The notes: a model not told the origin generated them from the sequence alone. Counted from the first letter of the stretch, positions 6,179 through 22,630 are shown. The stretch is 48,831 nt of DNA from Minisyncoccota bacterium (GCA_035545915.1 DASZXL010000022.1:1-48831); one strand, 5' to 3'. A program made the numbers and translations.

Positions 6179-6184
6179 CACAAA

Positions 6185-6337: not shown

Positions 6338-6414
6338 TCGGGTCCTTTCGTTGTGGTTTTTGAGGTTTAAAGTACAGGGGTTTGGCACTCTTTCTACATT
6401 AAAAACCAAGAAAG

Positions 6415-7338: not shown

Positions 7339-8066
7339 GATCGTATCTTTTCGATGATGTCTCTTTGGCGCTCGACGGGGAAGAAGAATCGGTTCTCGGA
7401 CGAGCCGTCGTAGGGCTGCTCGGCATAGCCGCGCTCCTTGAGGAGGGACAGGAGGAATGCCGCGTTCGGGCCTTTGACCTCTATGAAGAGGATGGGACGA
7501 AGCGACGCGAGCGTCTTTTCAGCACCCTTGAATACCGAGAGTTCGTGGCCTTCGGTATCGCATTTGATGAGATCGAGCCTGGCGATGCCGCGCGTGGCGA
7601 CGAATGCGTCGACGGTGTCTACATGCACGCTCTCCGTTTCAGAGGCGCTCTCGCTCGGCTCGAATGACGCCATCTGGGTATATCGGCCGATGGTGCTCAC
7701 GGGTATGGCGAGCTCTTTGTCTCCCGCCGCGTCAGAGAAGGCGATATTCTGGGGAATGATATCAGATACCTTGCTCGCGACGCCGCGGAGGACGCCGAAC
7801 ATGCGACTCTGCGGCTCGAAAGCGAATACTTTTCCCGCGCCGCAGACCTTGGCGAAGAAATAGCTCAGTTCGCCGCGGTTGGCGCCGATGTCGAATACGA
7901 CCGAGTCTTTGCCGAGGGCTTTCGCGAGCGGCGCGAGCTCTTTCTCGGCGAGGCTATAGTTTCTATCCCATCGGCCGACCCAGCGCTTTCCCTGAAGATA
8001 CTGGAAAGGGCCGAAGGGCGTGAGTTTCTCAACGACTTTCGATTTAATGCGGCTGAGGGCGATCAT
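7335..8066 (-). CDS. FkbM-family SAM-dependent methyltransferase
   Basis: 243 aa. Motifs: VFDIGANRGELSYFFA and IDLIKCDTEGHELSVFKGAEKTL (the FkbM signature). ATGA overlaps occur at both ends. Confidence 0.8.
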   Translation of the reverse strand: MIALSRIKSKVVEKLTPFGPFQYLQGKRWVGRWDRNYSLAEKELAPLAKALGKDSVVFDIGANRGELSYFFAKVCGAGKVFAFEPQSRMFGVLRGVASKVSDIIPQNIAFSDAAGDKELAIPVSTIGRYTQMASFEPSESASETESVHVDTVDAFVATRGIARLDLIKCDTEGHELSVFKGAEKTLASLRPILFIEVKGPNAAFLLSLLKERGYAEQPYDGSSENRFFFPVERQRDIIEKIRS

Positions 8067-8830
8067 GCGTTTATGAAATGATAGAGTCCGGTGCCGAAGC
8101 CTTTCTTCGGGTCGTACGCAGACTCGACGTTCCTGCCGTATATGTACCTCTCCTCCGCGAGCTCGAGTTCCTTGAAGAGTCCCATGACGCGCGCGCGGGT
8201 GAATGCGCGATGGGCATTGAAGTAGGTCTTATCCTCCGCGTCGACAGGCACGGATATATAGAGCGAGCCTCCGCGGGCGAGCACGCGCGACAATTCCGCC
8301 GATGCCTTCTCGGTGCCGAATTGGTCGAGGGGGTCACCGTAGCGTCCGAGGCCGATATGTTCGATGACGCAAATGGATGAGAGCGAGGATATCTCGCCGT
8401 CTTTGAACGGCAGCCTTGTGATATCGCCTTCGATGAACGAAAGCCCTGGAAGGGAGATCGACAGCGGACGGATGTCGATCATAGTCGTCGGCGTGAACTG
8501 AGATATGATGCCGACCATGAGCGCCTGCGAGGCTATGTCGTAATGGCGGGCAGGCTTCGCTTCGAAGACTTTCTTGGCGCACCAGCATCCTTGGATGAAA
8601 TAGACGGGATCGATCTCATGAGAGTCGGTCTTGTCGTGTATCCGGGGGAAGAGATCCGCGGTCGAGAGCTTGTACGCAGAATTCCGCGCGAGCTTCTGGT
8701 ATTTCCGATAATCAGAAAGGTATGACGCGAGATTCTTCGCGCGAGCGGAGAGCGAAGGCTTTATGCGGAATGCGCGCGCCGCGACGACGGCGTATTTCAG
8801 TATCGATATGGATTTAAGCTTCTCTTTCAT
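8063..8830 (-). CDS. Class I SAM-dependent methyltransferase (DUF268-like)
   Basis: 255 aa. Motifs: CVIEHIGLGRYGDPLD and LARGGSLYISVPV. Confidence 0.65.
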   Translation of the reverse strand: MKEKLKSISILKYAVVAARAFRIKPSLSARAKNLASYLSDYRKYQKLARNSAYKLSTADLFPRIHDKTDSHEIDPVYFIQGCWCAKKVFEAKPARHYDIASQALMVGIISQFTPTTMIDIRPLSISLPGLSFIEGDITRLPFKDGEISSLSSICVIEHIGLGRYGDPLDQFGTEKASAELSRVLARGGSLYISVPVDAEDKTYFNAHRAFTRARVMGLFKELELAEERYIYGRNVESAYDPKKGFGTGLYHFINA

Positions 8831-9678
8831 CGGATTTCTACGAAAGGCGTCTTAGTCGGGAACATGCATTTGAACATGACGTACCAAAGGGGAGAGAGGA
8901 TGCGGAGCTTGTTGGTCGCTATAGAGAACAGCCTCACTTTATATGCAGCTATGCTCCTCGTGGGCATTATAACCTCTTGCTCGGCCCTGTATTTTGCGTT
9001 CTGCGAGCTGATCTGACCCGGGCGGATCCTGAATCGCGTCGTATATTCGCGTACCGAATCGAGTGGGGCATGCTTCGCGAACTGGATACCGAGCCAATAA
9101 TCGCCGGCAGAGCGGAGAGTCGTCGGGATCGGCGCGACCTTCTTCCAGAGGCTCGCGCGCCAGAATGTGCTCTCTTGCTCGACGAAATAACTCTCTCTGC
9201 CGTATATGCCTTTGGCGAGCCAGTCTTGATAATAACTTTTGAACACGCCTTTGCGGAGTTCCGCGCCTGTATCGTCGATGAAGCCGCAGATGCCTTTGGC
9301 CCACATGCTCTCGGGATTGTTCGCGAACCAATCAGCTATCTTCTGGAGCGCGCTGTCTGGATAGTAGAGATCGTCGCCGCCGATCCAGGCGAAGATGTCG
9401 CCGGTTGCCTGCGCGAATCCGTTATTGATGGCAGCGTACATGCCTTGGTTCTGTTGATGTATGTACCTGAGCTCGAATGAGCGGCAGCTCGCTTTTATCT
9501 CTCCTTTGGCGAGCTTTTCCTTTATATCGATGATGATCTTCTCGCTCGAATCGGCCGATCCATCATTCACGAGCGTGTATTCGACGTCGAAATCGCCGCG
9601 CTGGGCGAGCACGCTTTCGATGGTCTCGCGGATGTACCGCTCCATGTTATAGACCGGCGTGACGACGGATATCTTCAT
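8827..9678 (-). CDS. Glycosyltransferase family 2
   Basis: 283 aa. Motifs: MKISVVTPVYNMERYIRETIESVLAQ, LVNDGSADSS, GGDDLYYP. Confidence 0.85.
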   Translation of the reverse strand: MKISVVTPVYNMERYIRETIESVLAQRGDFDVEYTLVNDGSADSSEKIIIDIKEKLAKGEIKASCRSFELRYIHQQNQGMYAAINNGFAQATGDIFAWIGGDDLYYPDSALQKIADWFANNPESMWAKGICGFIDDTGAELRKGVFKSYYQDWLAKGIYGRESYFVEQESTFWRASLWKKVAPIPTTLRSAGDYWLGIQFAKHAPLDSVREYTTRFRIRPGQISSQNAKYRAEQEVIMPTRSIAAYKVRLFSIATNKLRILSPLWYVMFKCMFPTKTPFVEIR

Positions 9679-9679
9679 G

Positions 9680-10534
9680 TCAGCCGATTATATATTTTTC
9701 GGGCATATTGTCATATCTCTCGTTCTGTTTCGTCTGTCGCCACATGTACATCGGGGCAAAGAAGACATGGCTCCTGCCGAACGTCTCTGCGACCTCGAAA
9801 TTGAAATCGCGGTCCGCTCCGCGGCCCATGAATGACGGCCAGACGCGGTCGGCGAGTTTCCTGAAGCGAACCTTGTCGATAACTTCTCTTTTGAAGAGAG
9901 ACGAATTGCCTGATGCCGGATATGGGTCGAGAGCGCCGAAGAATGCCTTGTTCAAAATCCGCGCCGTCTTGATGCTCCATGGGATATATGCGGCGAGAGA
10001 GCCGAGGATCTTGTACGCGACGCCTTTGGTCCTCCGCGCGAGGCGCGCGAGTTCATCAGGTCCCATCATGCCCGGGCGGTCTTTGAGGTATGCGTCGATG
10101 TCGAAACGCTTGCCAAGATATTTCTCATCGAACGACTGCCAGTCGAACGTTACGTGCATCGAATCATGCTTGATGAGGAGGTCGTACTGCGCCTCGATGC
10201 GGTTCGCGAACGATGCGTCGTCGGCGTCTTGGAACGTGATGTACGCGCCGCGAGCTTTCTCGAATCCATAATTCCTCGCCGAATATCCTGCGTTTATGTT
10301 CCTGCCGCGCGAATTGACGCGATTCGGGTCATTGAAGGGAAGGGCGTAGTACGAGATGCGCGGGTCTTCCTTTGCCAAAGCGAGGACGACGGACCTCGTA
10401 TCGTCAGCGCTGTTATCGTCGATGACGATGATCTCGAGCTCTCTCCATGTTTGGCTCGCGATCGATCGTATGGCGGTGCCGATGGTCGTGGCTGAATTAT
10501 GGGCGGGGATGATGACTGATATGAGAGGTTTCAT
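9680..10534 (-). CDS. Glycosyltransferase family 2
   Basis: 284 aa. Motifs: ISVIIPAHNSATTIGTAIRSIASQ, IIVIDDNSADDT, ITFQDADD. Confidence 0.85.
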   Translation of the reverse strand: MKPLISVIIPAHNSATTIGTAIRSIASQTWRELEIIVIDDNSADDTRSVVLALAKEDPRISYYALPFNDPNRVNSRGRNINAGYSARNYGFEKARGAYITFQDADDASFANRIEAQYDLLIKHDSMHVTFDWQSFDEKYLGKRFDIDAYLKDRPGMMGPDELARLARRTKGVAYKILGSLAAYIPWSIKTARILNKAFFGALDPYPASGNSSLFKREVIDKVRFRKLADRVWPSFMGRGADRDFNFEVAETFGRSHVFFAPMYMWRQTKQNERYDNMPEKYIIG

Positions 10535-11694
10535 GCCTTCAATATGGTATCGAGGAATAGGGCGTACGTGCGAGAGAATTCAGGTTTGCTATAGAAGGCG
10601 CGGATGAAAGACCAGGCTTTCCGAGCCATAGCCTCGACATCGTTATCGGAGAGAGCGGCGAATTCGAGCGCGGCAGAGCGGATCTTCTCGACGGTCGGCT
10701 CTGATATGAGGGTTGCCGGCGCTCTCTCGTCTATGCCGGTCTCCGGCGTGATTATCGGATAGAGCCCGGCATGAACTGCCTGGACGGCGGCCCCTGACGT
10801 TCCTTCAGAGCATGACATGTACATAAGGGCTCCGCACATATCGGTTATCTGAGAAAAAGGCACACCGTTCACGCTCATGTTTCCTGCCTGATCTATCTTC
10901 GGTCGGCCGTGGAGGGTCACGTTAGGGAGGGAGAGCTCGCTCTTGTAGGCTTCCATGAAGTCCTTTTCGGCCGCGACGGGACCGACGATATGGAGATGAA
11001 GGTCCGGCGTCGTTGCGAATGCCTCGAGTACCATGTCGAGTCCTTTATGGACCGCTCCGCCTCCGCCGAACCAGAGGAATGATTTTTTCGCCGTGGCGAA
11101 ATTCTTGTTCGCCGGGAAATCGAACGTCTTCGACACCGACTCGTGGATAGGGAATATGTCTTTGCCGAAGCGCGCATAGGTGGCGTAGACGGTATCGTTG
11201 CCGAAACCTTCCATATAGGCGGCGAATCGAGGATTCGTAGACGGCGACTCGGTTCTCTGGGCTTTCAATTCGATGCCGCGGCGCGATTTGAGATTCGCGA
11301 GCCTTTTCTGTTCGGCGTTGTTCTGGAATTCGCCGTATGAAGACACGACGTGCATGACTTTCTTGCAATCAGACGGAAGGAGCGGCGCGAGACGCTCGAG
11401 CCTTTTTTGGGTGTCGATGCAGATCTTATATTTTTTCTTGGGGATGAACGCTTCGTCGTTCCACTGGATTATATCGACGGCATAGCCTCGCTCTGCGAGA
11501 AGGCGGGCGATCTCGGCGCATTCCCAGTAGTTCGCGTGCGGATCCATGTGACTTTCCTTCGGGGTCTGAGTGAAAGGCGAGACGAGGTACGATAGCAGGG
11601 CGTCGCCCTTCTTTTTACCTCTGGCCGGCATATGGGCCGTGCCGCGTATCTTATTCGAGAGCTTGTTTATGTATGCGCGGTACGTGCTAGGCAT
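10531..11694 (-). CDS. Glycosyltransferase, GT-B fold (GT4-like)
   Basis: 387 aa. The C-terminal half contains FLWFGGGGAVHKGLDMVLEAF, LHIVGP and SCSEGTSGAAVQAVHAGLYPIITPETG. Confidence 0.65.
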   Translation of the reverse strand: MPSTYRAYINKLSNKIRGTAHMPARGKKKGDALLSYLVSPFTQTPKESHMDPHANYWECAEIARLLAERGYAVDIIQWNDEAFIPKKKYKICIDTQKRLERLAPLLPSDCKKVMHVVSSYGEFQNNAEQKRLANLKSRRGIELKAQRTESPSTNPRFAAYMEGFGNDTVYATYARFGKDIFPIHESVSKTFDFPANKNFATAKKSFLWFGGGGAVHKGLDMVLEAFATTPDLHLHIVGPVAAEKDFMEAYKSELSLPNVTLHGRPKIDQAGNMSVNGVPFSQITDMCGALMYMSCSEGTSGAAVQAVHAGLYPIITPETGIDERAPATLISEPTVEKIRSAALEFAALSDNDVEAMARKAWSFIRAFYSKPEFSRTYALFLDTILKA

Positions 11695-13495
11695 GGAGGT
11701 GATTTTTATTATGCGTATTAAACCACATAAGAAGGCATACGAGCGACCAGAGCTTGCCGCCGTTCTCGCCGGTCTTGTAGAAGTCGGCCGAGACGCGCAG
11801 GGAGGCGTTTCGATCGAGAAATCTCCATGCGGGATTGCCTTCGGCGAAGAGCGAATCGACGAGCGCTTTCATTTTAGGCTGGGCAAGCCACGTACCAACG
11901 GGCGCGCCGAAACCCTGTTTCCTGCGGTCGACGAATTCGCGGGGAAATACCTCGGCGAGGATGTCTTTCAGTATGATCTTGTTCTTGGATTTCGAGAGCT
12001 TGAACGAAGTAGGGAGGCTGTAGACGAATTCCGCGAGCGCGGTATCGAGGAAGGGCGACCTGACTTCGAGCGAATGCATCATGCTCGTGCGATCTATCTT
12101 GGCGAAGAGCTGTCCGGGTAGGTATATCTTGAGATCGAAGGCGTTTATCTTGCCGATAGGATCGGATATGCCTGCGGTCGCGAGTTTTTCAGATGCCGCT
12201 GACGCTCTCTGCGTCACGCCGCTCGCTCGCGATTTAAGAAGCGCCCGCCGCTCGCTCGCGCCAAAAATAGTCGTCGCCTTGCGGTACGTCCTAAATGGAT
12301 TCAAGAACCATCGCGACGGTTTCCAGCGTGGTGTGTGCCAGTGCTTCTGATACCAGCCGTAACCCATAAAAAGCTCATCAGCGCCGTCGCCCGTGAGCGC
12401 AACCTTAACCTTGCTCGCGGCAAGCCCCGATATGAGGTGCTGAGGGAAATTCGACGTGTCTCCGTGAGGCTCGTCCATATACGCAACGATCTTCTCGAGC
12501 TCGTCAGCGAGGTCGGCGTTCACACGGAGGGGATAGTGGTCCGTGCCGATCTTTTTCGACGCTTCGAGTGCGAACGCTGATTCGTCTTTGGTGCCTTCGT
12601 ATCCGACCGAGAACGTCTTTACGGGAGTCTTCGAATATTTCTGGGCGTAGAGCGTGACGATAGTCGAATCCACGCCGCCTGAAAGGAGCGAGCCGATCTC
12701 GACGTCAGCCACCATCCTCTTCTTCACCGCGGCATCCAAGAGCTCTTTGAGCTTCGCCTTGGCGTCTTCGTATGAGATATCGATCTTCTTCTTTTCCAGG
12801 TCCCAATATCGCCAGGTCTCTATCGAGCCGTCCTTCACGATACCTGCGTGGGCAGGCGGCAGCATGTGTATATTGGAATATATCGTGCGATATGAAGGCA
12901 CGTACATGAGGCGCAGATAATCGTCGAGCGCCGCGGGATCGACGATCCCCTTCACGAGGCCGCTCGCGAATATCGATTTGATCTCGGATGCGGCGACGAA
13001 GAGCGGCGCTTTCCCGGTTCTTTCGATCGACGCATAGTAGAGCGGCTTCTTGCCGAATTGGTCGCGCGCGACGAAGAGCTCTTTCTTCACGTCGTCCCAT
13101 ATCGCGAATGCGAACATACCGTCGATATGCTGTACGCAGTCGCGGCCGTATTCCGCGTAGGCTTTCAATATGACTTCGGTGTCAGACTGGGAAGAGAATC
13201 GATGTCCGCGCTTTTCGAGTTCGGCGCACAGGCCTTTATATCCGTATATCTCGCCGTTGAATACGATCGTAAGAGGATTCGTATTGTCTCGCATCGGCTG
13301 ATGGCCGGCGGGGGAGAGATCGACGATGGAGAGCCGCGTCTGGCCGACGACTGCGCCCGCATCCTCGGCAGAACCGAGCCTCTCGAATCCCTTATCGTCA
13401 GGGCCGCGCTGTGCGAGGCATAAAAGCATCGCGCCGACCTGCGCGTCAGATATGTCTTTAGTCTTTTGTCCTGCTATGGCTATGATGCCGCACAT
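11687..13495 (-). CDS. asnB: Asparagine synthase (glutamine-hydrolysing) family amidotransferase
   Basis: 602 aa. MCGIIAI provides the N-terminal Cys nucleophile of the GATase-2 domain. LSGGVDST is the PP-loop. It lies inside the glycan operon. Confidence 0.85.
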   Translation of the reverse strand: MCGIIAIAGQKTKDISDAQVGAMLLCLAQRGPDDKGFERLGSAEDAGAVVGQTRLSIVDLSPAGHQPMRDNTNPLTIVFNGEIYGYKGLCAELEKRGHRFSSQSDTEVILKAYAEYGRDCVQHIDGMFAFAIWDDVKKELFVARDQFGKKPLYYASIERTGKAPLFVAASEIKSIFASGLVKGIVDPAALDDYLRLMYVPSYRTIYSNIHMLPPAHAGIVKDGSIETWRYWDLEKKKIDISYEDAKAKLKELLDAAVKKRMVADVEIGSLLSGGVDSTIVTLYAQKYSKTPVKTFSVGYEGTKDESAFALEASKKIGTDHYPLRVNADLADELEKIVAYMDEPHGDTSNFPQHLISGLAASKVKVALTGDGADELFMGYGWYQKHWHTPRWKPSRWFLNPFRTYRKATTIFGASERRALLKSRASGVTQRASAASEKLATAGISDPIGKINAFDLKIYLPGQLFAKIDRTSMMHSLEVRSPFLDTALAEFVYSLPTSFKLSKSKNKIILKDILAEVFPREFVDRRKQGFGAPVGTWLAQPKMKALVDSLFAEGNPAWRFLDRNASLRVSADFYKTGENGGKLWSLVCLLMWFNTHNKNHLHA

Positions 13496-13496: not shown

Positions 13497-14591
13497 CTAT
13501 GATCGCCTGGATATGAAGCAGGCTTCCTTCGAGTATATCTGTCGCTCGAATACCTCGTAGCCGGCTTCGGCGAGCATACGCTCGGCGGCCTTCAGAGACA
13601 AGATCTTACGATCGATGCGCGTCATGAGGGCGTTCTTCACGTTCGGACGGATTTTTTTGAGCGCTTCGCGCGTCTTCGCGTCGCTCGCGAGCATATCAGG
13701 GTAGACCTCAATGCCGAAATGATCGTATCGGTCGATGAATCCCTTGATATCAGGCTTGTTCGGCCTACCCATGGTCCATCCCGCTATCCTGAATATCTTT
13801 CGATAGAGGCGGCGGAGGAAATTATTCGATGTATGCGCCGCGAGCCAGTCTACGAGCCTTCGTAGCGGATCGAGCGCGTTCGTCTGCTCGCCGATGATGG
13901 TCCAGTCTTTCTTCAATATCGGCAGTTGCCATTCGTTATTCTCGCGGGCATATCGATGGACGAAGAGCTTCTGATCTGGATTTCGATAGGGAAGGCAGTC
14001 GATCATGAACATGAAAGACGAATCAATGACATGGATCTCCGCGGCCTTCTCTATAATCTCTGTATAGTCGAATACCGTCGCGGCTTTTGAGGGGTCGGGA
14101 ACGAATACCTCGAGGTCGCGATTGACGAGATGGCGTTTGATGGCGTATCCGCGCGACGTGTCTTCGTGAAGGAAGGCGTAGGGCTTTTTGGGAGCGTTCT
14201 TCTCGGAGAACGCGCGCTCTACCGCGCGGTCACGTTCGACATGGAATGCGCTCCAGGTCTTGTCGAGGCCGACTCCTGCCATCGTATAGAACTGCTTCTG
14301 CAGATGTACCCCCGAATTCTTGTCCAGGCGGTCGAAGCCGATGATCATAGATTCGCCGTATTCGCGTCCCGGTCCGGCATTCTCCGCTATATATGCGCGG
14401 GCGACTTTCTCGTCTCCCTTGAGAATAGCGACGTTCGGCAGGTCGCGGTACATGAAGGCCGTCGACGCATAGTTATGGGGCAGGCAGAAGAGGCCGACCT
14501 TGGCGTACCGTGCCGCATAGTCGCGGACGATGCCGTGGCACATGAAATGGTCGCCAAGGCCGAAATTGTGGAGGACGATGACGCTTCGCAT
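13497..14591 (-). CDS. Hypothetical protein, first gene of the 8-gene glycan operon; weak GT9-like N-terminus
   Basis: 364 aa. The N-terminus VIVLHNFGLGDHFMCHGIVRDYAARY resembles the xxGxGD start of heptosyltransferase-type GT-B proteins. I do not recognise the C-terminal ~120 aa. Confidence 0.6.
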   Translation of the reverse strand: MRSVIVLHNFGLGDHFMCHGIVRDYAARYAKVGLFCLPHNYASTAFMYRDLPNVAILKGDEKVARAYIAENAGPGREYGESMIIGFDRLDKNSGVHLQKQFYTMAGVGLDKTWSAFHVERDRAVERAFSEKNAPKKPYAFLHEDTSRGYAIKRHLVNRDLEVFVPDPSKAATVFDYTEIIEKAAEIHVIDSSFMFMIDCLPYRNPDQKLFVHRYARENNEWQLPILKKDWTIIGEQTNALDPLRRLVDWLAAHTSNNFLRRLYRKIFRIAGWTMGRPNKPDIKGFIDRYDHFGIEVYPDMLASDAKTREALKKIRPNVKNALMTRIDRKILSLKAAERMLAEAGYEVFERQIYSKEACFISRRS

Positions 14592-14600
14592 GGTGTCCGC

Positions 14601-14606
14601 AGTATA
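14601..14606 (-). promoter_or_regulatory. -10-like box TATACT, 9 nt upstream of the ATG at 14591 (candidate leaderless operon start)
   Basis: The minus strand reads gcTATACTgcggacaccATG. Confidence 0.4.
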
Positions 14607-14655
14607 GCATTTCGCATCGCGGGCGACGTATGGCGGATTACAGGAAAAGTGCTAC

Positions 14656-14661
14656 TATAAT
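14656..14661 (+). promoter_or_regulatory. -10 box TATAAT, 9 nt upstream of the ATG at 14671 (candidate leaderless)
   Basis: The sequence reads gctacTATAATcgtacttttATG. Confidence 0.45.
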
Positions 14662-14670
14662 CGTACTTTT

Positions 14671-15702
14671 ATGAAAGCAGCAATCCTCGAGACCATAAAC
14701 GGTCCTCTTATCATCGACGATATCGAGCTCACCGACCTCGCGTTCGGACAGGTGCTCGTCAAGATATTGGTCTCCGGCCTCTGTGGCTCTCAGCTTCAGG
14801 AGATCGCTGGCAATAAAGGCAATGCCAAATTCGTGCCCCATCTCCTCGGCCACGAAGGCTGCGGCATTGTCGAGAAAGTCGGTCCCGGCGTGACCAAGGT
14901 AAAACCGGGCGACAAGGTCATCATGCACTGGAGGAAAGGCGAAGGCATCGAGGCCGATTTCCCGACATATATATGGAAGGGCAAGCCGATGCGAAGCGGC
15001 AAGGTGACCACGCTCTCCGAATATTCGGTCGTGTCGGAGAACAGGGTGACCCCTGTTCCTCAGGATACTCCTGAGGAACTCTGCGCCCTTCTCGGCTGCA
15101 GCCTTTCGACCGCTCTCGGTCTCATCGACAATGAATCTGAGCTGAAGCTCGGCGAGAGCTTTATGACCATGGGTGTGGGCGGTCTCGGCGTCAACCTCAT
15201 CAAGGCCGCCAAGCTCGCGGGCGCGCATCCGATCATCGCCGTCGACATCCATGACCACAAGAAAGACACGGCCCTCGAGGTCGGCGCGGACCTTTACATA
15301 AACGCGGCTACTCAGTCGATCAAAGACGAGCTCGGCAAGCTTGGCCTCAAAGACGTCCATGTCATTGTCGACTGCACGGGTAGCAAGAAGGCGATCGAGG
15401 ATTCCATGCAGCTCCTCTCGGGTATCGGCCGCTTCGTCATGCTCGGCCATCCGAAGCCCGGCGAGTCGATCGAGATCAAGAACGCTAATCATTTCTTCGA
15501 AGGTGAGGGCAAATCCATGCGCGCGACGCAGGGCGGCAGGTTCCACCCGACGCGCGATATCCCGCGCTACGTGAGTCTCCATAAGAGCGGCAAGCTCAAC
15601 ATCGACAAGATCATCACTCATCGCCTCAAGCTCAATCAGATAAACGAAGCCATCGACCTCGTCAGGAAGGGCGGCGCGAGCCGCATATTGATAGAGATGT
15701 AA
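14671..15702 (+). CDS. Zn-dependent medium-chain (MDR) alcohol dehydrogenase family protein
   Basis: 343 aa. Motifs: [35 protein letters not shown], and the Rossmann motif GVGGLGVN. The structural-Zn Cys cluster appears to be absent. Confidence 0.85.
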
Positions 15703-15715
15703 CTCTGGCCCTGTC

Positions 15716-16669
15716 ATGAAGTCGAACCTCCTTCACGCATTCAAGACCATGACCTCGATCCGCGTCGCGGAAGAGGAGATCGCGAAATATTACCTCGAGA
15801 ACAAGGTAATGAGCTTCGTCCATTTCTACGTGGGCCAAGAAGCTGTCGCTGTGGGCGTCTGTGACGCATTGGCACCCGAAGATCGCGTCATGGGCAACCA
15901 TCGATCGCATGGCCACTATCTAGCCAAAGGCGGCGACTTGAAGGCTATGGTCTGCGAGCTCCTCGGCAAGGCCGAGGGCTGTTGCAAAGGAAAGGGCGGC
16001 TCGATGCACATGATAGACAAGTCGGTGAATTTCATCGGTTCGACGCCGATACTCGGCTCCGTCGTGCCGCTCGCGAACGGCAGTGCATTCGAGCAGCGAT
16101 ATTCAAAGGCCAAGGGCCTCACCGCGGCATTCTTCGGCGATGGTGCGTTTGAAGAAGGTGTTGTGTATGAGACGCTCAACCTGGCGGCCCTTTTCAAAAA
16201 TCCGCTTCTTCTCGTCGTCGAAAACAATCTCCACTCGGTCAATTCCAAGCTCCGCGACAGGCGATCTGCTGAACATAATGTCGAGAATATCGTCACAGGT
16301 TTCGGCGTTAAATATCTGAAGGCCGACGGTCTCGACTATGAAGACGTCCTCGCGAAGGCTTCTGAAGCTGTAACGTACATTCGCGCGGGCAAAGGTCCTG
16401 TCGTTTTGGAATGTGTGACGTTTCGCCACATGGCTCACAGCGCGCCGATCTTCGACGAGAACTATCGCGAGGAGGACGTGCTCGAGAAGCGCGTCGAAAA
16501 GGACTCGGTCAAAAAAGTGCGCGCCGCTCTGGTAAAGCAGGGCGTCGCCGAAGCCGAGCTCGCTAAGATCGAAACGGACGCCCGCGCGCATGCGATCGAC
16601 TGCATCAAATACGCGGCGACCGCTCCGTATCCGGCCAAGGAGACTCTTTATACCGACGTATTCGCATAA
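15716..16669 (+). CDS. ThDP-dependent 2-oxoacid/acetoin dehydrogenase E1 component, alpha subunit-like
   Basis: 317 aa. The ThDP motif GDG-26 residues-NN is present (FFGDGAFEEGVVYETLNLAALFKNPLLLVVENN). FRHMAHS corresponds to the YRxxGHS region. Confidence 0.8.
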   Translation: MKSNLLHAFKTMTSIRVAEEEIAKYYLENKVMSFVHFYVGQEAVAVGVCDALAPEDRVMGNHRSHGHYLAKGGDLKAMVCELLGKAEGCCKGKGGSMHMIDKSVNFIGSTPILGSVVPLANGSAFEQRYSKAKGLTAAFFGDGAFEEGVVYETLNLAALFKNPLLLVVENNLHSVNSKLRDRRSAEHNVENIVTGFGVKYLKADGLDYEDVLAKASEAVTYIRAGKGPVVLECVTFRHMAHSAPIFDENYREEDVLEKRVEKDSVKKVRAALVKQGVAEAELAKIETDARAHAIDCIKYAATAPYPAKETLYTDVFA

Positions 16670-16673
16670 ACCT

Positions 16674-17714
16674 ATGGCTGAACGCATCATTAAATATACC
16701 GAGGCTCTGAAGGAAGCGACAGACCAGATGATGGAGGTCGATCCGAGGGTCTGCGTGCTCGGCCTCGGCGTATCGTATAAAAACGGCGCCGACGGCACGA
16801 CGGCGGGGCTCAAGGCGAAATATCCCGACCGCGTCCTCGACGTGCCGGTGTCCGAGGCGGGTATCACGGGCATGGCCGTCGGCGCGGCCATCGCCGGCAT
16901 CCATCCGATCGTCCATCACGGACGCCTCGAATTCGCCATCCTTGGCGCGGACGCCATGTTCACGCAGGCGGCGAAATGGAATTACATGTTTGGCGGCGGC
17001 AATCCGGTTCCCGTCGTGTTCCGCATCAACATCGGCCGTCAGTGGGGCAATGGTCCTCAGCACACGCAGGCCTTCTATTCGCTCTTCGGCAACACCGTCG
17101 GTCTCAAGGTCGTCATTCCGTCGTCGCCGCGCATGGCGAAAGGCCTCCTCGTCTCCGCGCTCCGCGACAAGAATCCCGTCGTCATCCTCGAGCCGCGCTG
17201 GCTTTTCAATATAAAACAGGATGTCCCGACGGAGATATTCGCTGAGCCTCTCGATAAGGCGCAGGTCGTCGCGAAGGGAAATGATGTCACGATCGTTTCG
17301 TACGGCGATGGACTTCTCGCTGCGCGCGAGGCTCTCGATATCATCGGCGACAAGGCATCTGTCGAGCTTGTCGACCTTGTGAGTATCAATCCGATCGATT
17401 ATCCGACTGTGCTTACCTCTATAAAAAAGACCGGACGCCTCATCACCATCGACACGACCAACGAAGCATTCAACATCGGTTCCGAAATCATCGCCGCTGT
17501 AGGGAAGGACCAGTCGATCAAGCTCAAGACCGCGCCTGTCACGCTATCATGCCCGAACGTGCCGATCCCGACGTCGACAGCCCTCACCAAATCCGTATAT
17601 CCGACCAAGGTAGATGTCGCGAATGCCGTGCTCAAGCTTCTCGGCAAAGGGGAAGTAGGTACGAAGCTCTCGTTCGAAGGGCTCCATATCGCGCCAGGCA
17701 TCACGCTTATTTAA
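16674..17714 (+). CDS. ThDP-dependent dehydrogenase E1 component, beta subunit-like (transketolase-like Pyr + C-terminal domains)
   Basis: The track ORF starts at 16590 and overlaps the alpha subunit. The ATG at 16674 (MAERIIKYTEALKEA) lies 4 nt after the alpha stop and is preferred. Motif: VLDVPVSEAGITGMAVGAAIAGIHPIV. Confidence 0.8.
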   Translation: MAERIIKYTEALKEATDQMMEVDPRVCVLGLGVSYKNGADGTTAGLKAKYPDRVLDVPVSEAGITGMAVGAAIAGIHPIVHHGRLEFAILGADAMFTQAAKWNYMFGGGNPVPVVFRINIGRQWGNGPQHTQAFYSLFGNTVGLKVVIPSSPRMAKGLLVSALRDKNPVVILEPRWLFNIKQDVPTEIFAEPLDKAQVVAKGNDVTIVSYGDGLLAAREALDIIGDKASVELVDLVSINPIDYPTVLTSIKKTGRLITIDTTNEAFNIGSEIIAAVGKDQSIKLKTAPVTLSCPNVPIPTSTALTKSVYPTKVDVANAVLKLLGKGEVGTKLSFEGLHIAPGITLI

Positions 17715-18249
17715 CCGCCTTCACGAGATAGTGGTGCGGCTTCAGTTCGTTCCTGCCGAAATGGATGATCTCGGCGGATGAGAATCCCTTGAAAAGCTCG
17801 CCGAGGCCCTGGCGGGTGAAGCGCCAATAGTCGCCGTACTCTTCGCCGTGAAGTTCGGCAGAAAAGGGGGTTGATATAAACGCACGACCCTCTGGGGCGA
17901 GGACGCGGTGGATCTCCGCAGCAGCCCTAAAAGGATCCTTCACGTGTTCGAGAACCTCAAAACAAAATATGGCGTCGAACTCTCCGTCCTTGAACGGCGT
18001 GGCGAGGATGTCGCCGCGCACGTCAGCTTTGCCCATCTGATCCATAGTCGTCACATCTCTGAAATTATCCTTAGCCCACGATCCGTAGGCCGAACCGATG
18101 TCGAGTATCTTACCCGAGAGGTCTTTCGGGATATGCGCATAGAGTTCCGGCCTGTCGCCATTCTTGCCGTAGGTATATTCGGTCATGTCGACTTTATAGA
18201 GTCGGTGACCCGTCAGCTTGAATATGATGTTGTTGATGAAAAGCTTCAT
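17707..18249 (-). CDS. Class I SAM-dependent methyltransferase
   Basis: 180 aa. Motifs: ILDIGSAYGSW, FDAIFCFEVLEHVKDP, LAPEGRAFISTPF. Its 3' end overlaps the convergent E1-beta gene by 8 nt. Confidence 0.8.
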   Translation of the reverse strand: MKLFINNIIFKLTGHRLYKVDMTEYTYGKNGDRPELYAHIPKDLSGKILDIGSAYGSWAKDNFRDVTTMDQMGKADVRGDILATPFKDGEFDAIFCFEVLEHVKDPFRAAAEIHRVLAPEGRAFISTPFSAELHGEEYGDYWRFTRQGLGELFKGFSSAEIIHFGRNELKPHHYLVKAVK

Positions 18250-18264: not shown

Positions 18265-19524
18265 CTATTTCGTCTTAGCCGTCTTGTATTTGAGCGCCAC
18301 GGCGAGCTTGCCCGGATGCTTGCCGTTATAGACGATCGACTGAGGATTCTCCGCCGCGTCGATGATTTCGAAATTGATACCCTGCTTCATGTCGAAATTC
18401 TCGACGCCAGGGCGGTGGAGGCGGGTATCGATGTAGTACATGCCGACGTTAAGCAGGTTCGGCGGCACTTTGACCGATGTCTTATATTTTCCTGGTTCGA
18501 AATCGCCGACACTTGCTGTTGTATCTGACTCAGAAGAGAAGAGGAGAATGTCTCCTTCCGCATAGAATATGACCGATGGCGTCATTTTGACGGGGGAGGA
18601 GATCTCGTAGTCCATCTCTATGGTGAAACCTTCGTTCACCGTCATGCGCGTGGCCGGCTGGCCTGCGGCATTCATGATGCTGACCTTGGTCACCTGCGCT
18701 TTTTTGCCAGGCTCGAGAGGGAATTCGTTCATCGAGCTCATCTCGGCGCTGTTGAGATAGCGAGTGATAACCCTCTCGGTCTCGTCGAACATCTTCACCT
18801 GGCCCTTTTCGATGAGGACAGTCTTCTTGCAGAGGCGCTTCACGGCCGACAGATTGTGGCTCACAAAGAGGATCGTGCGGCCCTGCTTGCGGGTCACCTC
18901 TTCCATCTTGCCCATGCATTTCTTCTGGAATTCGGCGTCGCCTACGGCGAGCACTTCGTCTACGAGGAGTATGTCCGGCTCCATATGCGATGCGACGGAG
19001 AAGGCAAGGCGCACGTACATGCCCGATGAATAGTATTTGACCGGCGTATCGAGAAATTTCTCTATCTCGGCGAATTCGACGATGGAGTCGAAGTTGTCCG
19101 CGATCTCTTTTTTAGTCATGCCGAGGATGGCGCCGTTCAGGAATATGTTCTCGCGGCCCGTTAATTCAGGATGGAAGCCGGTGCCGATCTCGAGGAGGGA
19201 CGCGACGCGGCCGCGCATCTTGATCTCGCCGGTCGTCGGCGGGGTGATGCCGGTCAATATTTTAAGGAGCGTCGATTTGCCTGCGCCGTTTCGGCCGATG
19301 ATGCCGATGATCTCGCCTTGTTCGACGTTAAAGCTCACGTCCCGAAGCGCCCAGAAGTCCTCGCGGGTCTTTATGCCGGCGACCCGCTTGGCTTTATCCT
19401 TGGCGAAGCTGAAGGGTCTCCTCATGACGTTCATGAGGACGTCGCGGAGCGCGATGTAGCCGCCCTGCCCATGCCGGATGTCGTATCTCTTGCCGATGCC
19501 TTTTACTTCGATGATAGGTTCCAT
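18265..19524 (-). CDS. wzt: Polysaccharide/teichoic-type ABC exporter ATP-binding protein (Wzt/TagH-like) with a ~170 aa C-terminal extension
   Basis: 419 aa. Walker A is GIIGRNGAGKSTLLK, the signature is YSSGMYVRLAF and Walker B is ILLVDEVLAVGD. The C-terminus (from about VITRYLNS) looks beta-rich, like the Wzt C-terminal glycan-binding domain. Confidence 0.8.
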   Translation of the reverse strand: MEPIIEVKGIGKRYDIRHGQGGYIALRDVLMNVMRRPFSFAKDKAKRVAGIKTREDFWALRDVSFNVEQGEIIGIIGRNGAGKSTLLKILTGITPPTTGEIKMRGRVASLLEIGTGFHPELTGRENIFLNGAILGMTKKEIADNFDSIVEFAEIEKFLDTPVKYYSSGMYVRLAFSVASHMEPDILLVDEVLAVGDAEFQKKCMGKMEEVTRKQGRTILFVSHNLSAVKRLCKKTVLIEKGQVKMFDETERVITRYLNSAEMSSMNEFPLEPGKKAQVTKVSIMNAAGQPATRMTVNEGFTIEMDYEISSPVKMTPSVIFYAEGDILLFSSESDTTASVGDFEPGKYKTSVKVPPNLLNVGMYYIDTRLHRPGVENFDMKQGINFEIIDAAENPQSIVYNGKHPGKLAVALKYKTAKTK

Positions 19525-19533: not shown

Positions 19534-20376
19534 TTAGAGTATGTCGGCGAAATAGCGCTCGACCTTCTTGAAATAGATCGTGCCGATGATGAGGACGACG
19601 AGGCAGACCGAAAACGACAGGCCGAGGAGCGTCCAGTTGACCGGCGTCGTGCCGAGGAGCGCCGCCCGCGCCGACTGAATAACGCCCGTCATCGGGTTGA
19701 GGGCGAGGAGCCACGAAAATTTGCCCGCGATCGACGCAGGATATATGACGGGCGTGAGGAAGAGGAGTATCTGGATGAAGAACGGTAGCGCGTGGCGGAC
19801 GTCGCGGTATTTGACGTTCACCGCGGCAAGGAAGAGGCCGCCGCCGACGGATGCCATGAATGCGATAGCGAGGAGCACTGGCAGGAGCCAGAGTCCGGCG
19901 AAATGAGGCACGAATCCGTAATAGAGCATGAGGCCGACGAGTACGATCGCCGCGACCCCGAAGTCGACGAGCTTGGTGATCACGCCGCTTATCGGCAGGA
20001 TGAGGCGAGGGAAGTAGACCTTGGTTATGATCGGCTGGTTCGATATGAGGGTATTCGACGTCTCGGTGAGCGCGCCCGAGAAGAACTGCCAGAAGAGGAG
20101 GCCGACATAGACGAATATGGGATACGGCACCCCGTCGGAAGGCACCTGCGCAAGCTGGCCGAAGAACACGCTGAACACTACCATCGTGATGAGCGGCTGG
20201 AGGAGTGCCCAGAGGACGCCGATGAGTGTTTGTTTATAGCGGACTTTGAGGTCGCGCCAGGTAAAGAAATAGAGGAGCTCGCGATATCGCCAGAGCTCCC
20301 TCATGTCCTCCCATGAAAAGGTCTTCTTCGGGCGGATGATGGTCGTGGGGGCAGTCATACCGGTGCAGTCTATCAT
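19534..20376 (-). CDS. wzm: ABC-2 type polysaccharide exporter permease (Wzm/TagG-like)
   Basis: 280 aa with 6 hydrophobic segments. Motif: WRYRELLYFFTWRDLKVRYKQTLIGVLWALLQPL. Confidence 0.8.
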   Translation of the reverse strand: MIDCTGMTAPTTIIRPKKTFSWEDMRELWRYRELLYFFTWRDLKVRYKQTLIGVLWALLQPLITMVVFSVFFGQLAQVPSDGVPYPIFVYVGLLFWQFFSGALTETSNTLISNQPIITKVYFPRLILPISGVITKLVDFGVAAIVLVGLMLYYGFVPHFAGLWLLPVLLAIAFMASVGGGLFLAAVNVKYRDVRHALPFFIQILLFLTPVIYPASIAGKFSWLLALNPMTGVIQSARAALLGTTPVNWTLLGLSFSVCLVVLIIGTIYFKKVERYFADIL

Positions 20377-20439
20377 TTTTATGCGCTGTTTGTAATCGTT
20401 GGCCGGCGGAAAACGTTACAAATAGGCCGTGCCCTGTGA

Positions 20440-20445
20440 TATATT
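20440..20445 (+). promoter_or_regulatory. -10-like box TATATT, 7 nt upstream of the ATG at 20453 (candidate leaderless)
   Basis: The sequence reads gtgaTATATTtgaatccATG. A possible -35 TTACAA lies 18 nt upstream. Confidence 0.4.
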
Positions 20446-20452
20446 TGAATCC

Positions 20453-22630
20453 ATGACGCTCAACACCATATTGAAACGAACGGCCGTCGCTAGTGTCTTC
20501 GCGGTATTTATCATCCCTTTCATCGTACCCGGCAACATGTTCTTCCCGTTCATCACGGGCAAGGGCTTCCTGTTTAGGGCGTTCGTCGAGATAGGCTTCG
20601 CGGCATGGCTCCTTCTGTCGCTTCGCGACGCCTCGGCGCGGCCTCGTAAGTCATGGATGCTCTGGGCGTTCGTCGCGTTCGTCGGCGTGATCGGAATAGC
20701 CGACATATTCGGCGTGAATCCGTGGAAGAGCTTCTGGTCTAATTTCGAGCGTATGGAAGGCTATATCACCATCCTCCACCTCTTCCTCTATTTCATCGTC
20801 GCTTCGGCAGTCCTTTCGACGGAAAAACTCTGGAAGCGATTCCTCGAATGGTCGGTATGGTCGAGCTTCGCCATGACGCTCTATGGATTCGCCCAGCTCG
20901 GCGGCGTGTTCCAGATCAATCAGGGCGGCGTCCGCGTCGACGGTACGTTCGGCAATGCGACGTATCTCGCCATATATATGGTGTTCAATATCTTCTTCGC
21001 GCTCATTCTCGTGAACCGCGATAAGGCGATATGGAAGAGGGTATCGTACGGCATCATCGCTTTCTTGAATTTCATCATCCTCTACCACACGGCTACCCGA
21101 GGATCGATCCTCGGTCTTCTGGGCGGGCTTTTGCTCTCGGGTATTCTGATCGCCGCCTTCGACAAAGGTGAAAAGAAGCTTCGTATCGTGGCTGCATCGA
21201 TCGTGGGAGCGGTGGTTCTCCTCGTCATCGGATTCATCGGCATCCGCCACACGTCATTCGTCACGGAGAGCCCGGTCCTCTCGCGCTTCGCGTCGATATC
21301 GTGGGCAGATACGCAGACGCAGGCTCGCGCATATATATGGCCGATGGCTATCGAAGGCTGGAAGGAGAGGCCGGTATTCGGCTGGGGCCAGGAGAATTTC
21401 AACTACATATTCAACAAGGATTACGATCCGCGCATGTATGCGCAGGAGCAGTGGTTCGATCATGCCCATAATTCGGTCCTTGACTGGCTCGTTGCGGGCG
21501 GGGTGCTCGGCCTTCTCGCGTATCTGTGGCTCTTCGGCGCGGCGATATGGCTCCTCTGGAAGAAGTCTGCCGATATTTCGTTTACGGAGAAAGCCTTGTT
21601 CACCGGCCTCGGCGCGGCGTATTTCTTTCATAACCTCTTCGTATTCGACAATATCGTGAGCTATATATTGTTCGGGTCGGTTCTCGCCTTTATCCATTTC
21701 AAGGCGACGAGGCTCGAAAAGCCGATCGGCGGCGATGCGCAGGAGATCGAGACTGACGACGTGAAGATGGCCGGCCCCATTGTCCTCGTCGCGCTCGCAT
21801 TCGCTCTCTGGTTCTTCAACTGGCGCGGATACGAGACGAATATCTACCTCATAGACGCGCTTCGAGCGTCTTCGGTATCGCCGGTGCAGGGGCAGGCCGC
21901 TCTCGACGCATTCGTCCGCGCGGCGTCATACGATACGCTCGGCAGGCCTGAATTAGTCGAGAGGGTGGTGACCGCCGTACCCGCGATGAATAACAACGCC
22001 GTCTCTCTCGATGTGCGTCAGAAGTTCGCCGAGTTCGCCAAGGGTCTCGTCGATACGCAGATCCAGCGCTCGCCGGGCGATGCCCGTTACGAGACGTTCG
22101 CCGGCACGTTCTATGCCTCGTACGGCCAGACAGCCGATGCTGAGAAACATTTTGTCGCCGCGGCCGAGCTCTCGCCGAAGAAGCAGACCATCCTCTTTCA
22201 GGTCGGTAGCTTCTATCTGTCGTCCAAGCAGTCCGACAAGGCCATAGCCGCATTCAAGACCGCGTATGATCTTGATCATTCGTACGCTGATGCGGCGCGA
22301 TACTACGCTATGTCGCTCGTCTATGCCGGTCGCGAGACCGATGCACGGGCCGTTCTCCAGGGCGCGGGCCTCGATTCCTCCATGGCCGACGATGATTTCC
22401 TTCGCGCATATATCGATAGCGGCAATTGGGCCAAGGCTATCGCTCTCTTGAAGGCGCGCATCGTCGCGAATCCTAAGGATACGTCGAGCATGCAGAATCT
22501 CGCAGGCGTCTATTATCAGTCGGGCAATAAGGCCATGGCCGTCCTTATGTTCAGGCAAATAGAGGCTGTCGATCCGAGTCTCAAGCCGCAGATCGATCAA
22601 TATATTCAGGCTATTCAGAACGGCCAGTAA
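20453..22630 (+). CDS. O-antigen ligase/polymerase-family (Wzy_C/WaaL-like) membrane protein with C-terminal TPR repeats
   Basis: The track ORF starts at a GTG (20429); the ATG at 20453 is preferred. Motifs: YHTATRGSILGLLGG, GWGQENFNYIF and WFDHAHNSVLDWLVAGGVLGLL (the WaaL-type H-x-H-N region). The C-terminal ~250 aa are TPR-like (e.g. AEKHFVAAAELSPKK, AIAAFKTAYDLDHSYADA). Confidence 0.75.
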   Translation: MTLNTILKRTAVASVFAVFIIPFIVPGNMFFPFITGKGFLFRAFVEIGFAAWLLLSLRDASARPRKSWMLWAFVAFVGVIGIADIFGVNPWKSFWSNFERMEGYITILHLFLYFIVASAVLSTEKLWKRFLEWSVWSSFAMTLYGFAQLGGVFQINQGGVRVDGTFGNATYLAIYMVFNIFFALILVNRDKAIWKRVSYGIIAFLNFIILYHTATRGSILGLLGGLLLSGILIAAFDKGEKKLRIVAASIVGAVVLLVIGFIGIRHTSFVTESPVLSRFASISWADTQTQARAYIWPMAIEGWKERPVFGWGQENFNYIFNKDYDPRMYAQEQWFDHAHNSVLDWLVAGGVLGLLAYLWLFGAAIWLLWKKSADISFTEKALFTGLGAAYFFHNLFVFDNIVSYILFGSVLAFIHFKATRLEKPIGGDAQEIETDDVKMAGPIVLVALAFALWFFNWRGYETNIYLIDALRASSVSPVQGQAALDAFVRAASYDTLGRPELVERVVTAVPAMNNNAVSLDVRQKFAEFAKGLVDTQIQRSPGDARYETFAGTFYASYGQTADAEKHFVAAAELSPKKQTILFQVGSFYLSSKQSDKAIAAFKTAYDLDHSYADAARYYAMSLVYAGRETDARAVLQGAGLDSSMADDDFLRAYIDSGNWAKAIALLKARIVANPKDTSSMQNLAGVYYQSGNKAMAVLMFRQIEAVDPSLKPQIDQYIQAIQNGQ

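Follow-up and report, generated by a model that had tools for sequence, protein, structure and literature searches.

A conserved stand-alone E1 alpha/beta and dehydrogenase cassette in Patescibacteria glycan loci: a candidate sugar-tailoring module

A 48,831-nucleotide contig of a Minisyncoccota bacterium (GCA_035545915.1, DASZXL010000022.1:1-48831), analysed over its full length and referred to as the window, carries at 14671-17714 a cassette of three plus-strand genes: a zinc-dependent dehydrogenase of the medium-chain dehydrogenase/reductase (MDR) superfamily, called ADH in the following, and the alpha and beta subunits of a thiamine diphosphate (ThDP)-dependent E1 enzyme resembling that of pyruvate dehydrogenase (PDH). 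Open reading frames (ORFs) and Pfam matches agree on the genes at 14671, 15716 and 16674 that an earlier description of this DNA (hereafter the original prediction) had listed. Glycan genes also lie on both sides as it had claimed, with AsnB-like amidotransferase, glycosyltransferase (GT) and methyltransferase genes upstream and methyltransferase, Wzt, Wzm and Wzy_C/tetratricopeptide repeat (TPR) genes downstream. A further gene, divergent from ADH, encodes a protein here called U364 (Table 1).

Table 1. Features of the cassette and its surroundings, in window coordinates.
Feature	Position	Strand	Basis and remarks
Upstream glycan locus (context)	522-13495	mostly -	Pfam matches: methyltransferase, GT4, PMT_2-like, GT2-methyltransferase fusion, short-chain dehydrogenase/reductase, 307-aa unknown protein, FkbM and DUF268 methyltransferases, two GT2, GT4-like, AsnB-like amidotransferase
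U364	13497-14591	-	364 aa; divergent from ADH; no Pfam/NCBIfam family
Divergent intergenic region U364/ADH	14592-14670	.	79 bp; probable shared promoter region
MDR Zn-dependent dehydrogenase (ADH)	14671-15702	+	343 aa; PF08240 + PF00107
E1 alpha-like ThDP-binding subunit, stand-alone type	15716-16669	+	317 aa; PF00676, 207 bits
E1 beta-like subunit, stand-alone type	16674-17714	+	346 aa; PF02779 + PF02780
Methyltransferase	17707-18249	-	Pfam; convergent with cassette, context only
Wzt ABC ATPase with Wzt_C domain	18265-19524	-	Pfam; export system of the same glycan locus
Wzm permease	19534-20376	-	Pfam; export system of the same glycan locus
Wzy_C (O-antigen ligase/polymerase-like) + C-terminal TPR-array protein	20429-22630	+	Pfam

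The spacers of 13 nt between ADH and E1 alpha and of 4 nt between E1 alpha and E1 beta are operon-like; for E1 beta the start at 16674 is preferred over a longer ORF from 16590 because it better matches the 346-aa homologues. The ThDP motif of E1 alpha is intact, as originally reported, with GDG followed by 26 residues and NN from residue 141, and its active-site His is kept ('AHS', aligned with human 'GHS'), while E1 beta retains the cofactor-activating Glu ('PVSEAG') and the active-site His ('QHTQ'). The pair has the subunit architecture of an E1 enzyme, an E1_dh alpha subunit and a transketolase-PYR/C beta subunit with ThDP motif and activating Glu. Against NCBIfam, E1 alpha scores 300.6 with TIGR03182, below the equivalog cut-off of 393.85, E1 beta scores 244.4 with NF006667, below the cut-off of 321, and all ADH matches are sub-threshold. 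The closest PDB relatives of ADH are class P and class III (also class I) alcohol dehydrogenases; the Cys/His/Cys catalytic zinc ligands are kept as in the class I/III enzymes, and about 25 residues of the structural-zinc lobe/loop are missing in comparison with these relatives. An 'AVDI' motif after GxGxxG suggests NAD rather than NADP as the cofactor. With the genuine 2,3-butanediol dehydrogenase (BDH) of Paracoccus, ADH shares only about 25% identity.

A minus-strand ORF of 359 aa (14638-15717) runs antisense to ADH and is longer than it; it was rejected as spurious, with Pfam supporting the plus strand. Such antisense ORFs are composition artefacts, and a similar one produced the public call of a '593-aa ADH' in the related locus L003, an apparent ADH fusion that was discarded as a gene-calling artefact whose N-terminus is an antisense reading of U364. 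Between U364 and ADH, a perfect TATAAT at 14656-14661 stands only 9 nt ahead of the ADH ATG (14671), which would imply a leaderless or near-leaderless transcript; a scan for consensus promoters and terminators found no more sites than in shuffled sequence and did not flag this TATAAT. At the other end, the original prediction had the cassette run into a Wzm/Wzt/methyltransferase operon. This has to be corrected, since those genes are on the minus strand and converge on the cassette, with an 8-bp overlap between the 3' ends of E1 beta and the methyltransferase (17707-17714), so that the cassette is not one transcript with them.

The window was compared with 33 related loci (30 found by scanning a single genome for each GTDB species with E1 alpha as query and 3 contigs from exact-protein look-ups), which gives a set of 34 loci, with genes called simply as longest ORFs and at least one artefact traced, that in L003. 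Searched against 5.8 billion proteins, E1 alpha returned thousands of matches, the best 120 of which are 64-84% identical and, where named, belong to Paceibacterota, Minisyncoccota or Patescibacteria. An exact look-up with the window's own E1 alpha matched no recorded contig. The ADH subfamily, of about 344 aa, shows 65-87% identity across Patescibacteria. The 30 loci of the GTDB scan have 57-84% identity in E1 alpha, followed by a gap down to 44% or less, and come from Patescibacteria or from metagenome-assembled genomes (MAGs) of unclassified bacteria, except two whose labels read Chthoniobacteraceae and Nanoarchaeota. As far as the contigs extend, ADH, E1 alpha and E1 beta follow one another collinearly in all 33 related loci; ADH is present in 32 of the 34 loci, always directly upstream of E1 alpha, and E1 beta likewise in 32. 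In view of this collinear triad and its large protein family the label 'orphan', under which the genes had been described, no longer applies: the cassette is a conserved module that is widespread in Patescibacteria.

Genes for a lipoyl acyltransferase (E2), a lipoyl protein or E3 were not found anywhere in the 48.8 kb, either with Pfam on most ORFs of at least 100 aa or by tblastn with E2, lipoyl-protein and LpdA references, which upholds the original prediction on this point. The tblastn search was likewise negative over 563 kb of related loci plus window, and the same queries did find their targets in the control loci L053, L055 and L057. Near the cassette, AcoC, AcoL, AcoX and AcoR are also absent from these 563 kb. 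The genes that do surround it were counted with Pfam, three on each side of the triad in 31 loci (148 proteins): FkbM methyltransferases lead with 14, followed by GT2 (12), PfkB kinases (11), other methyltransferases (9), NDP-sugar epimerase/dehydratases (8), GT4 (8), GT9 (5) and Exo_endo_phos (4), and no central-metabolism family is among the 25 most frequent. In the related loci the cassette always lies among glycosyltransferase, methyltransferase and sugar-nucleotide genes, and this glycan synteny is kept across all 33 although the neighbourhoods are otherwise shuffled. The co-occurrence with glycan loci in relatives, which the original prediction had proposed as a check, is thereby borne out.

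The relation to other E1 enzymes was examined in an E1 alpha tree built by neighbour-joining from 57 sequences over 309 columns, with 200 bootstraps. Reference sequences with annotated context were taken from plasmid records; the seven references of the complex type, with an adjacent E2, lipoyl protein or E3, include S. meliloti PdhA and Paracoccus AcoA, together with human PDHA1. The characterised AviB1/B2, Pau11/12, AlmDI/DII and KbDH sequences are not part of the tree. The E2-linked references comprise S. meliloti (pdhA-pdhB-E2-lpdA), Paracoccus (acoABC with BDH), Phaeobacter, Thermus, Cupriavidus and S. fungicidicus. Several candidates for actinomycete or other sugar-branching references had to be rejected, since Embleya, Streptomyces BHT-5-2, S. 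fungicidicus and Cupriavidus turned out to be E2-linked and Streptomyces NBC_00080 has a fused E1 in a catabolic context. The E2-linked sequences group with a support of 0.99, the Patescibacteria clade (34 sequences) with 1.0 and the other stand-alone pairs with 0.78. In a phylogeny of the kind that the original prediction had called for, the cassette E1 alpha thus lies outside the complex-type group and is separate from canonical PDH and Aco enzymes, as judged by neighbour-joining against seven references.

The beta subunits divide along similar lines. E2-linked E1 beta proteins have GE[ED]V and, before the active-site His, a loop of the form G(A)...AAQHSQ; other stand-alone pairs have GEGV, GQGV or GLDV with the loop GRGWGxGxQHSQ, and those of Patescibacteria GLGV with GRqWGNGPQHTQ. 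In the window, 'GLGV' stands where complex-type enzymes have 'GE[ED]V', and other stand-alone E1 beta proteins share its 'GRQWGNGPQHTQ' loop. The 'GRxWG...QH[ST]Q' loop together with the lost acidic pair is found in stand-alone pairs of other phyla and not in E2-associated ones. The 'GRxWG' segment adjoins the active-site His, at the point of entry of the lipoyl-lysine in enzymes of the complex type, and may have a role in acceptor binding. A stand-alone pair with a 'GRGWG' loop was also seen on plasmid pSGRIFU1 of Streptomyces griseofuscus (L063, 10986-13032), near genes for a condensation-domain protein, an acyl carrier protein (ACP), a phosphopantetheinyl transferase (PPTase) and a type II polyketide synthase, which suggests a role in carrier loading rather than sugar branching.

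U364 forms a fourth partner of the cassette. It is encoded in 22 of the 34 loci, usually directly upstream of and divergent to ADH, and its family of about 285 members consists entirely of unnamed Patescibacteria proteins. An AlphaFold2 model built with 45 homologues reached a pLDDT of 91.5, and the best PDB fold match in Foldseek is the ADP-heptose heptosyltransferase II of E. coli (1psw; E 4e-4, prob 1.0), with only modest TM scores of 0.41/0.45; the heptosyltransferase TibC follows next. No match to the GT9 profile PF01075 was obtained for U364, and its homologues carry no precomputed Pfam domain. Hence, with a GT-B fold like that of WaaC, WaaF and TibC and no PF01075 match, U364 is called GT9-like here and not a member of GT9; on the strength of the model it is a predicted GT-B, heptosyltransferase-like glycosyltransferase. 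Two members of the family, P0205 and P0232, are fusions with a HAD-IIIA phosphatase, a type to which GmhB belongs, and the P0232 fusion was confirmed beside the cassette in L065, where it diverges from ADH, E1 alpha, E1 beta and PfkB.

Heptose-type genes accompany the cassette in many of the relatives. A short PfkB kinase with HldE domain I as its best family (HldA-like) often comes directly after E1 beta; it is present in 16 of the 34 loci and overlaps E1 beta by 4 nt in L005, and an adenylyltransferase resembling HldE domain II (HldC-like; 175 bits against a cut-off of 181.5) is present in 11. Further neighbours in some loci are GmhA (4/34), Gmd (5/34), an HldD-like epimerase (8/34), a true GT9, a cupin and Exo_endo_phos, whereas a keto-sugar-forming dehydratase is not consistently near the cassette in the 34 loci. 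Taken together, the heptosyltransferase-like U364 and the HldA-, HldC- and GmhB-like proteins, GmhA and HldD-like epimerases of the relatives make it probable that the scaffold is a sugar of the ADP-heptose type and not the 4-keto-6-deoxyhexose that actinomycete pathways use. The Exo_endo_phos protein (PF03372, about 270 aa) is encoded downstream of E1 beta in L001, L003, L007, L009, L017, L023 and L033; it may be a phosphatase that replaces GmhB, and it is missing from the window and present in the window's closest relative, L007.

Stand-alone E1 pairs of other phyla, 31-45% identical to the Patescibacteria clade and free of E2/E3, are also set among sugar genes. On plasmid pDMC1 of Solidesulfovibrio magneticus, GT2s, a radical S-adenosylmethionine (SAM) enzyme, NUDIX, a kinase, a fucose-synthase-like protein, DegT, a dehydratase, a nucleotidyltransferase and a PMT-like GT accompany E1 alpha/beta; in Azospirillum plasmids a HAD-IIIA hydrolase, an oxidoreductase and a DegT aminotransferase do so, and in Nitrospina a SIS isomerase, an HldE-like fusion, two dehydratase/epimerases, radical-SAM enzymes and an ADH homologue. 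As in Patescibacteria, there is no E2/E3, the E1 beta loop is of the 'GRGWG' kind, and kinases, nucleotidyltransferases, SIS/GmhA-like, HldE-like and GT9/GT2 proteins and dehydratases are neighbours. In contrast to Patescibacteria, the partners are DegT aminotransferases or radical-SAM enzymes instead of an MDR dehydrogenase, Nitrospina excepted, and U364 is absent. Two arrangements stand out by themselves. In L037, L042, L045 and L047 (Nitrospina, Deltaproteobacteria, Rhodocyclaceae and other MAGs) E1 pairs lie beside radical-SAM/SPASM and B12-radical-SAM genes, together with GT9 heptosyltransferase-like genes and an HldE-like fusion, and this combination of E1, radical-SAM and GT9 is a recurrent, apparently undescribed type of sugar cluster outside Patescibacteria. 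In Nannocystaceae MAGs (L038-L040, L044, L048 and L050) E1 alpha and beta are fused into one protein of about 670 aa, with a GmhA-like isomerase, an NDP-sugar dehydratase and a DegT aminotransferase within 10 kb.

On balance, and with moderate confidence, we regard 14671-17714 as a sugar-tailoring module of the Wzm/Wzt-exported cell-surface glycan of a Paceibacterota-type member of Patescibacteria, and not as part of a 2-oxo-acid or acetoin dehydrogenase complex; in this module a two-carbon (C2) addition, a reduction by ADH and transfer by a GT9-like enzyme would act on a heptose-type scaffold. The gene content and catalytic motifs, the conservation and synteny, the lack of E2/E3 genes nearby and the separation from complex-type E1 enzymes all carry this reading. 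Its precedent are the alpha-KADH2 enzymes, stand-alone E1 alpha/beta pairs that install a pyruvate-derived acetyl branch on deoxy-keto sugars (PMC12247030). By analogy, E1 alpha/beta would work as a free-standing ThDP carboligase of this type that converts pyruvate to hydroxyethylidene-ThDP and passes the C2 unit to the carbonyl of an activated sugar instead of a lipoyl-E2, giving an acetyl-bearing alpha-hydroxy-ketone. The co-transcribed, probably NAD-dependent ADH would most likely reduce the methyl ketone to a 1-hydroxyethyl group, in a reaction of the acetoin-to-butanediol type; less likely, it would oxidise a sugar hydroxyl to make the carbonyl acceptor. U364 would then transfer the modified sugar onto the polymer. 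That stand-alone E1 pairs add C2 units to keto-sugars in actinomycetes, as the original prediction had stated, agrees with the literature (PMC12247030, PMC4753412). Of the glycan-dedicated ThDP module that it had proposed, the dedication is supported by the tree separation and the glycan synteny, while the branching chemistry itself is drawn from analogy.

Several observations weigh against the tailoring module as just described. The window has no gene for an NDP-sugar 4,6-dehydratase, a nucleotidyltransferase or a heptose-pathway enzyme in its 48.8 kb, which leaves acceptor and acceptor source putative for this genome. MDR dehydrogenases acting on nucleotide sugars are unusual. The S. griseofuscus pair, with a condensation-domain protein and an ACP as neighbours, shares this loop, and the 'GRxWG' signature therefore marks the stand-alone class and not sugar branching. 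The active-site His residues for reductive acylation of lipoamide are retained, which makes a lipoyl partner encoded elsewhere compatible with the sequence. TM scores are modest (0.41-0.45) for the structural similarity between U364 and GT9 enzymes, and the likeness to alpha-KADH2 is one of architecture and context, in which the beta loop serves as a proxy, the characterised members' sequences being outside the comparison. What the donor, the acceptor and the product would be, and in which order the steps would follow, is deduced from the genes.

The rival explanations differ in how much of the glycan context they keep. Glycan tailoring by a different C-C chemistry, which we consider unlikely and yet worth taking seriously, comes in two forms: ADH could oxidise a primary alcohol (heptose C-7 or hexose C-6) to an aldehyde onto which E1 would ligate the C2 unit to give a linear nonose or octose, or the E1 pair could act before nucleotide activation, like DXS or transketolase at the level of the sugar-phosphate, and feed the HldA-like kinase. 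That the relatives of ADH are primary-alcohol dehydrogenases (classes P, III and I) with a Cys-His-Cys zinc site, that aldehydes by far surpass ketones as ThDP acceptors (PMC12247030) and that no keto-sugar-forming dehydratase is consistently nearby would all suit such a scheme, and the kinase translationally coupled to E1 beta in relatives, with GmhA in only 4 of 34 loci, fits a front-end role. However, no E1 alpha/beta pair is known to extend glycan sugars, all documented stand-alone sugar cases being C2 branches on ketones (PMC12247030), and the window lacks the kinase and the nucleotidyltransferase yet keeps ADH, E1 alpha/beta and U364. A bolder proposal, also unlikely in our estimate, is that U364, ADH, E1 alpha and E1 beta form a four-gene module for an undescribed ADP-heptose + C2 sugar, branched or chain-extended to nine carbons, that would be a lineage-wide surface signature of Patescibacteria; in relatives the module has an anomeric kinase, a GmhB-like phosphatase and an adenylyltransferase of its own, and the carbonyl acceptor would be made by ADH, without need of a 4,6-dehydratase. 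Further from sugars, the E1 pair might provide a substituent of the polymer other than a sugar with an activated C2 unit (acetyl or hydroxyethyl) or with an aldehyde or alcohol derived from an alpha-keto acid, following the logic of a decarboxylase with a reductase (cf. phosphonopyruvate decarboxylase) or of the carrier-loading E1 pairs of natural products. The Streptomyces E1 pairs of the same signature do adjoin a condensation-domain protein, an ACP and a PPTase, and the locus is rich in decorating enzymes; no carrier protein, acyltransferase, phosphoenolpyruvate mutase or CoA-ligase is conserved near the cassette in the 34 loci, though, and among its partners a glycosyltransferase-like protein is conserved best. 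We consider this reading improbable.

Two explanations place the cassette in central metabolism. Patescibacteria are fermenters, ADH resembles ethanol-active classes and is apparently NAD-dependent, and the window also encodes the glycolytic enzymes enolase and iPGM; the E1 pair could then be a pyruvate decarboxylase and ADH could turn acetaldehyde into ethanol and regenerate NAD+, with the glycan context coincidental in a small, compact genome. Against this stand the glycan synteny over 33 loci with shuffled neighbourhoods, the absence of central-metabolism neighbours, the conserved divergent GT-like partner and, in relatives, the translationally coupled sugar kinase; heterotetrameric E1 enzymes also release acetaldehyde poorly. 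We hold fermentation to be highly improbable. Least credible of all is a remnant or dispersed AcoAB + BDH or PDH system with E2/E3 encoded elsewhere, the acetoin/butanediol alternative that the original prediction had allowed for. The best family match of E1 alpha is indeed PDH_E1_alph_y, its 'HRSHGHYLAKGG' motif is similar to AcoA, and the catalytic His residues are retained. Nevertheless, the scores are below the equivalog cut-offs, the clade is outside the group of Paracoccus AcoA and S. meliloti PdhA, E1 beta lacks the complex-type motifs, ADH is about 25% identical to Paracoccus BDH, and none of AcoC, AcoL, AcoX, AcoR or E2/E3 occurs in the 563 kb. Two other ideas were set aside: hydroxypyruvate-dependent synthesis of sedoheptulose-7-P by the E1 pair leaves ADH without a role, and the relatives outside Patescibacteria have a normal pentose-phosphate pathway; a polyol-phosphate (teichoic-acid-like) product does not suit U364, which is like GT9 and not like TagF-type transferases.

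In the rest of the window, several genes of the upstream glycan locus are syntenic in L003, L005, L012, L013 and L017. The 307-aa protein encoded there (6415-7338, minus strand) has no Pfam family; its homologues, found in 13 of the 34 loci, give only weak GT11 (fucosyltransferase-like) matches. Decoration genes of the locus include at least five methyltransferases and the AsnB-like amidotransferase, and within 10 kb of the cassette in the related loci Wzt occurs in 13 and Wzm in 9 of 34. Housekeeping genes begin at about 22.6 kb, with MurB, SecA, iPGM, enolase, Obg, GatB, ribonucleotide reductase, MurJ and LepA. The class I ribonucleotide reductase is encoded at 34068-37956 (plus strand) by a large subunit with ATP-cone and a small subunit, whose called ORFs overlap by 50 nt (36880-36929); the start of the small subunit probably lies further downstream than called. 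A large protein encoded at 39031-41361 (plus strand), and followed by MurJ, has a C-terminal TPR array and TPR matches only. On the plus strand are also a tRNA-Arg(CCT) at 46478-46550 and a tRNA-Phe(GAA) at 46899-46974, the latter within a minus-strand ORF (46602-47006) that has no Pfam match and is therefore probably not a gene.

Patescibacteria are known for a host-attached life with minimal metabolism. To our knowledge they generally lack 2-oxo-acid dehydrogenase complexes, and we know of almost nothing reported on the surface glycans of these organisms, also referred to as CPR (candidate phyla radiation). Our literature search on PDH E1 and glycans in Patescibacteria, or on heptose and ThDP, returned nothing specific. 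E1 pairs of this kind are often annotated as 'pyruvate/acetoin dehydrogenase', a label that can mislead metabolic reconstructions, and the present data argue for glycan tailoring. Over and above the original prediction, the analysis adds the lineage-wide occurrence of the cassette, its fourth partner, the ADP-heptose-type linkage in relatives and the stand-alone beta signature. If the tailoring reading is right, E1-type sugar carboligases, so far linked to actinomycete antibiotics, would extend to envelope polysaccharides of several phyla, a new, heptose-type class of acceptor would be predicted, and ADH, E1 alpha, E1 beta and the GT9-like protein would make a compact conserved set for biochemistry and for biocatalytic C-C bonding on sugars.

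Among known systems, AcoA/AcoB, the oxidoreductase Ao:DCPIP OR (Ao, acetoin; DCPIP, dichlorophenolindophenol), with BDH shares the two-subunit E1 fold, and the Paracoccus operon likewise includes an MDR dehydrogenase; Ao:DCPIP OR also carboligates onto ketones in vitro (PMC12247030). Aco operons, however, carry AcoC (E2), regulators and E3, none of which the cassette has, its E1 is outside the Aco/PDH group of the tree, and the identity of ADH to BDH is about 25%. In lipopolysaccharides, C2 branching has so far been credited to YerE-like enzymes of a different superfamily (PMC12247030). In the YerE/YerF pathway to yersiniose A, and with the YerE-like enzymes of lipopolysaccharide O-antigens, a ThDP enzyme moves activated acetaldehyde from pyruvate onto a nucleotide keto-sugar, and the branch is then reduced to 1-hydroxyethyl, for a surface polysaccharide as would be the case here (PMC12247030, PMC4753412). 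YerE is nevertheless a single-chain enzyme of the decarboxylase (acetolactate-synthase-like) superfamily, unlike the heteromer of E1_dh and transketolase-PYR/C subunits in the cassette, so that the resemblance is a functional analogy only, without family-level homology.

A survey of Krug et al. from 2024 reportedly covers about 120 alpha-KADH2 clusters, and those of actinomycetes are the closest parallel. They include the pathways to aldgamycin, kosinostatin, kibdelomycin (tested in vitro), avilamycin, paulomycin and trioxacarcin, and the new branch ketone is afterwards reduced, transaminated, methylated or oxidised (PMC12247030). The ketone is reduced in the pathways to paulomycin, trioxacarcin and avilamycin and transaminated in that to kibdelomycin (PMC12247030, PMC4753412); for paulomycin, the E1 pair is Pau11/12 and the reduction step belongs to Pau7, an aldo-keto reductase (PMC4753412). 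Like them, the Patescibacteria cassette has separate E1 alpha and beta, no E2/E3, sugar-biosynthesis and glycosyltransferase genes around it and, beside the pair, a tailoring redox enzyme that could process the new ketone. They differ in that the actinomycete pairs lie in antibiotic clusters and the present ones in Wzm/Wzt cell-surface glycan loci, and in that the partner here is an MDR Zn-dehydrogenase instead of an aldo-keto reductase such as Pau7. A cluster-encoded 4,6-dehydratase provides the acceptor in actinomycetes and is absent from the window, with Gmd in 5 and HldD-like epimerases in 8 of the 34 loci, while the conserved partners are the GT9-like protein and ADP-heptose-type activation genes. 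Relative to the actinomycete sugar-branching pairs, lineage, cellular role and partner enzymes are therefore new, and the acceptor is probably new as well. By analogy, E1 alpha/beta with an obligatory dehydrogenase, ADH, in Patescibacteria, or with DegT in other phyla, within sugar clusters fits the same logic of branching a sugar and then processing the branch.

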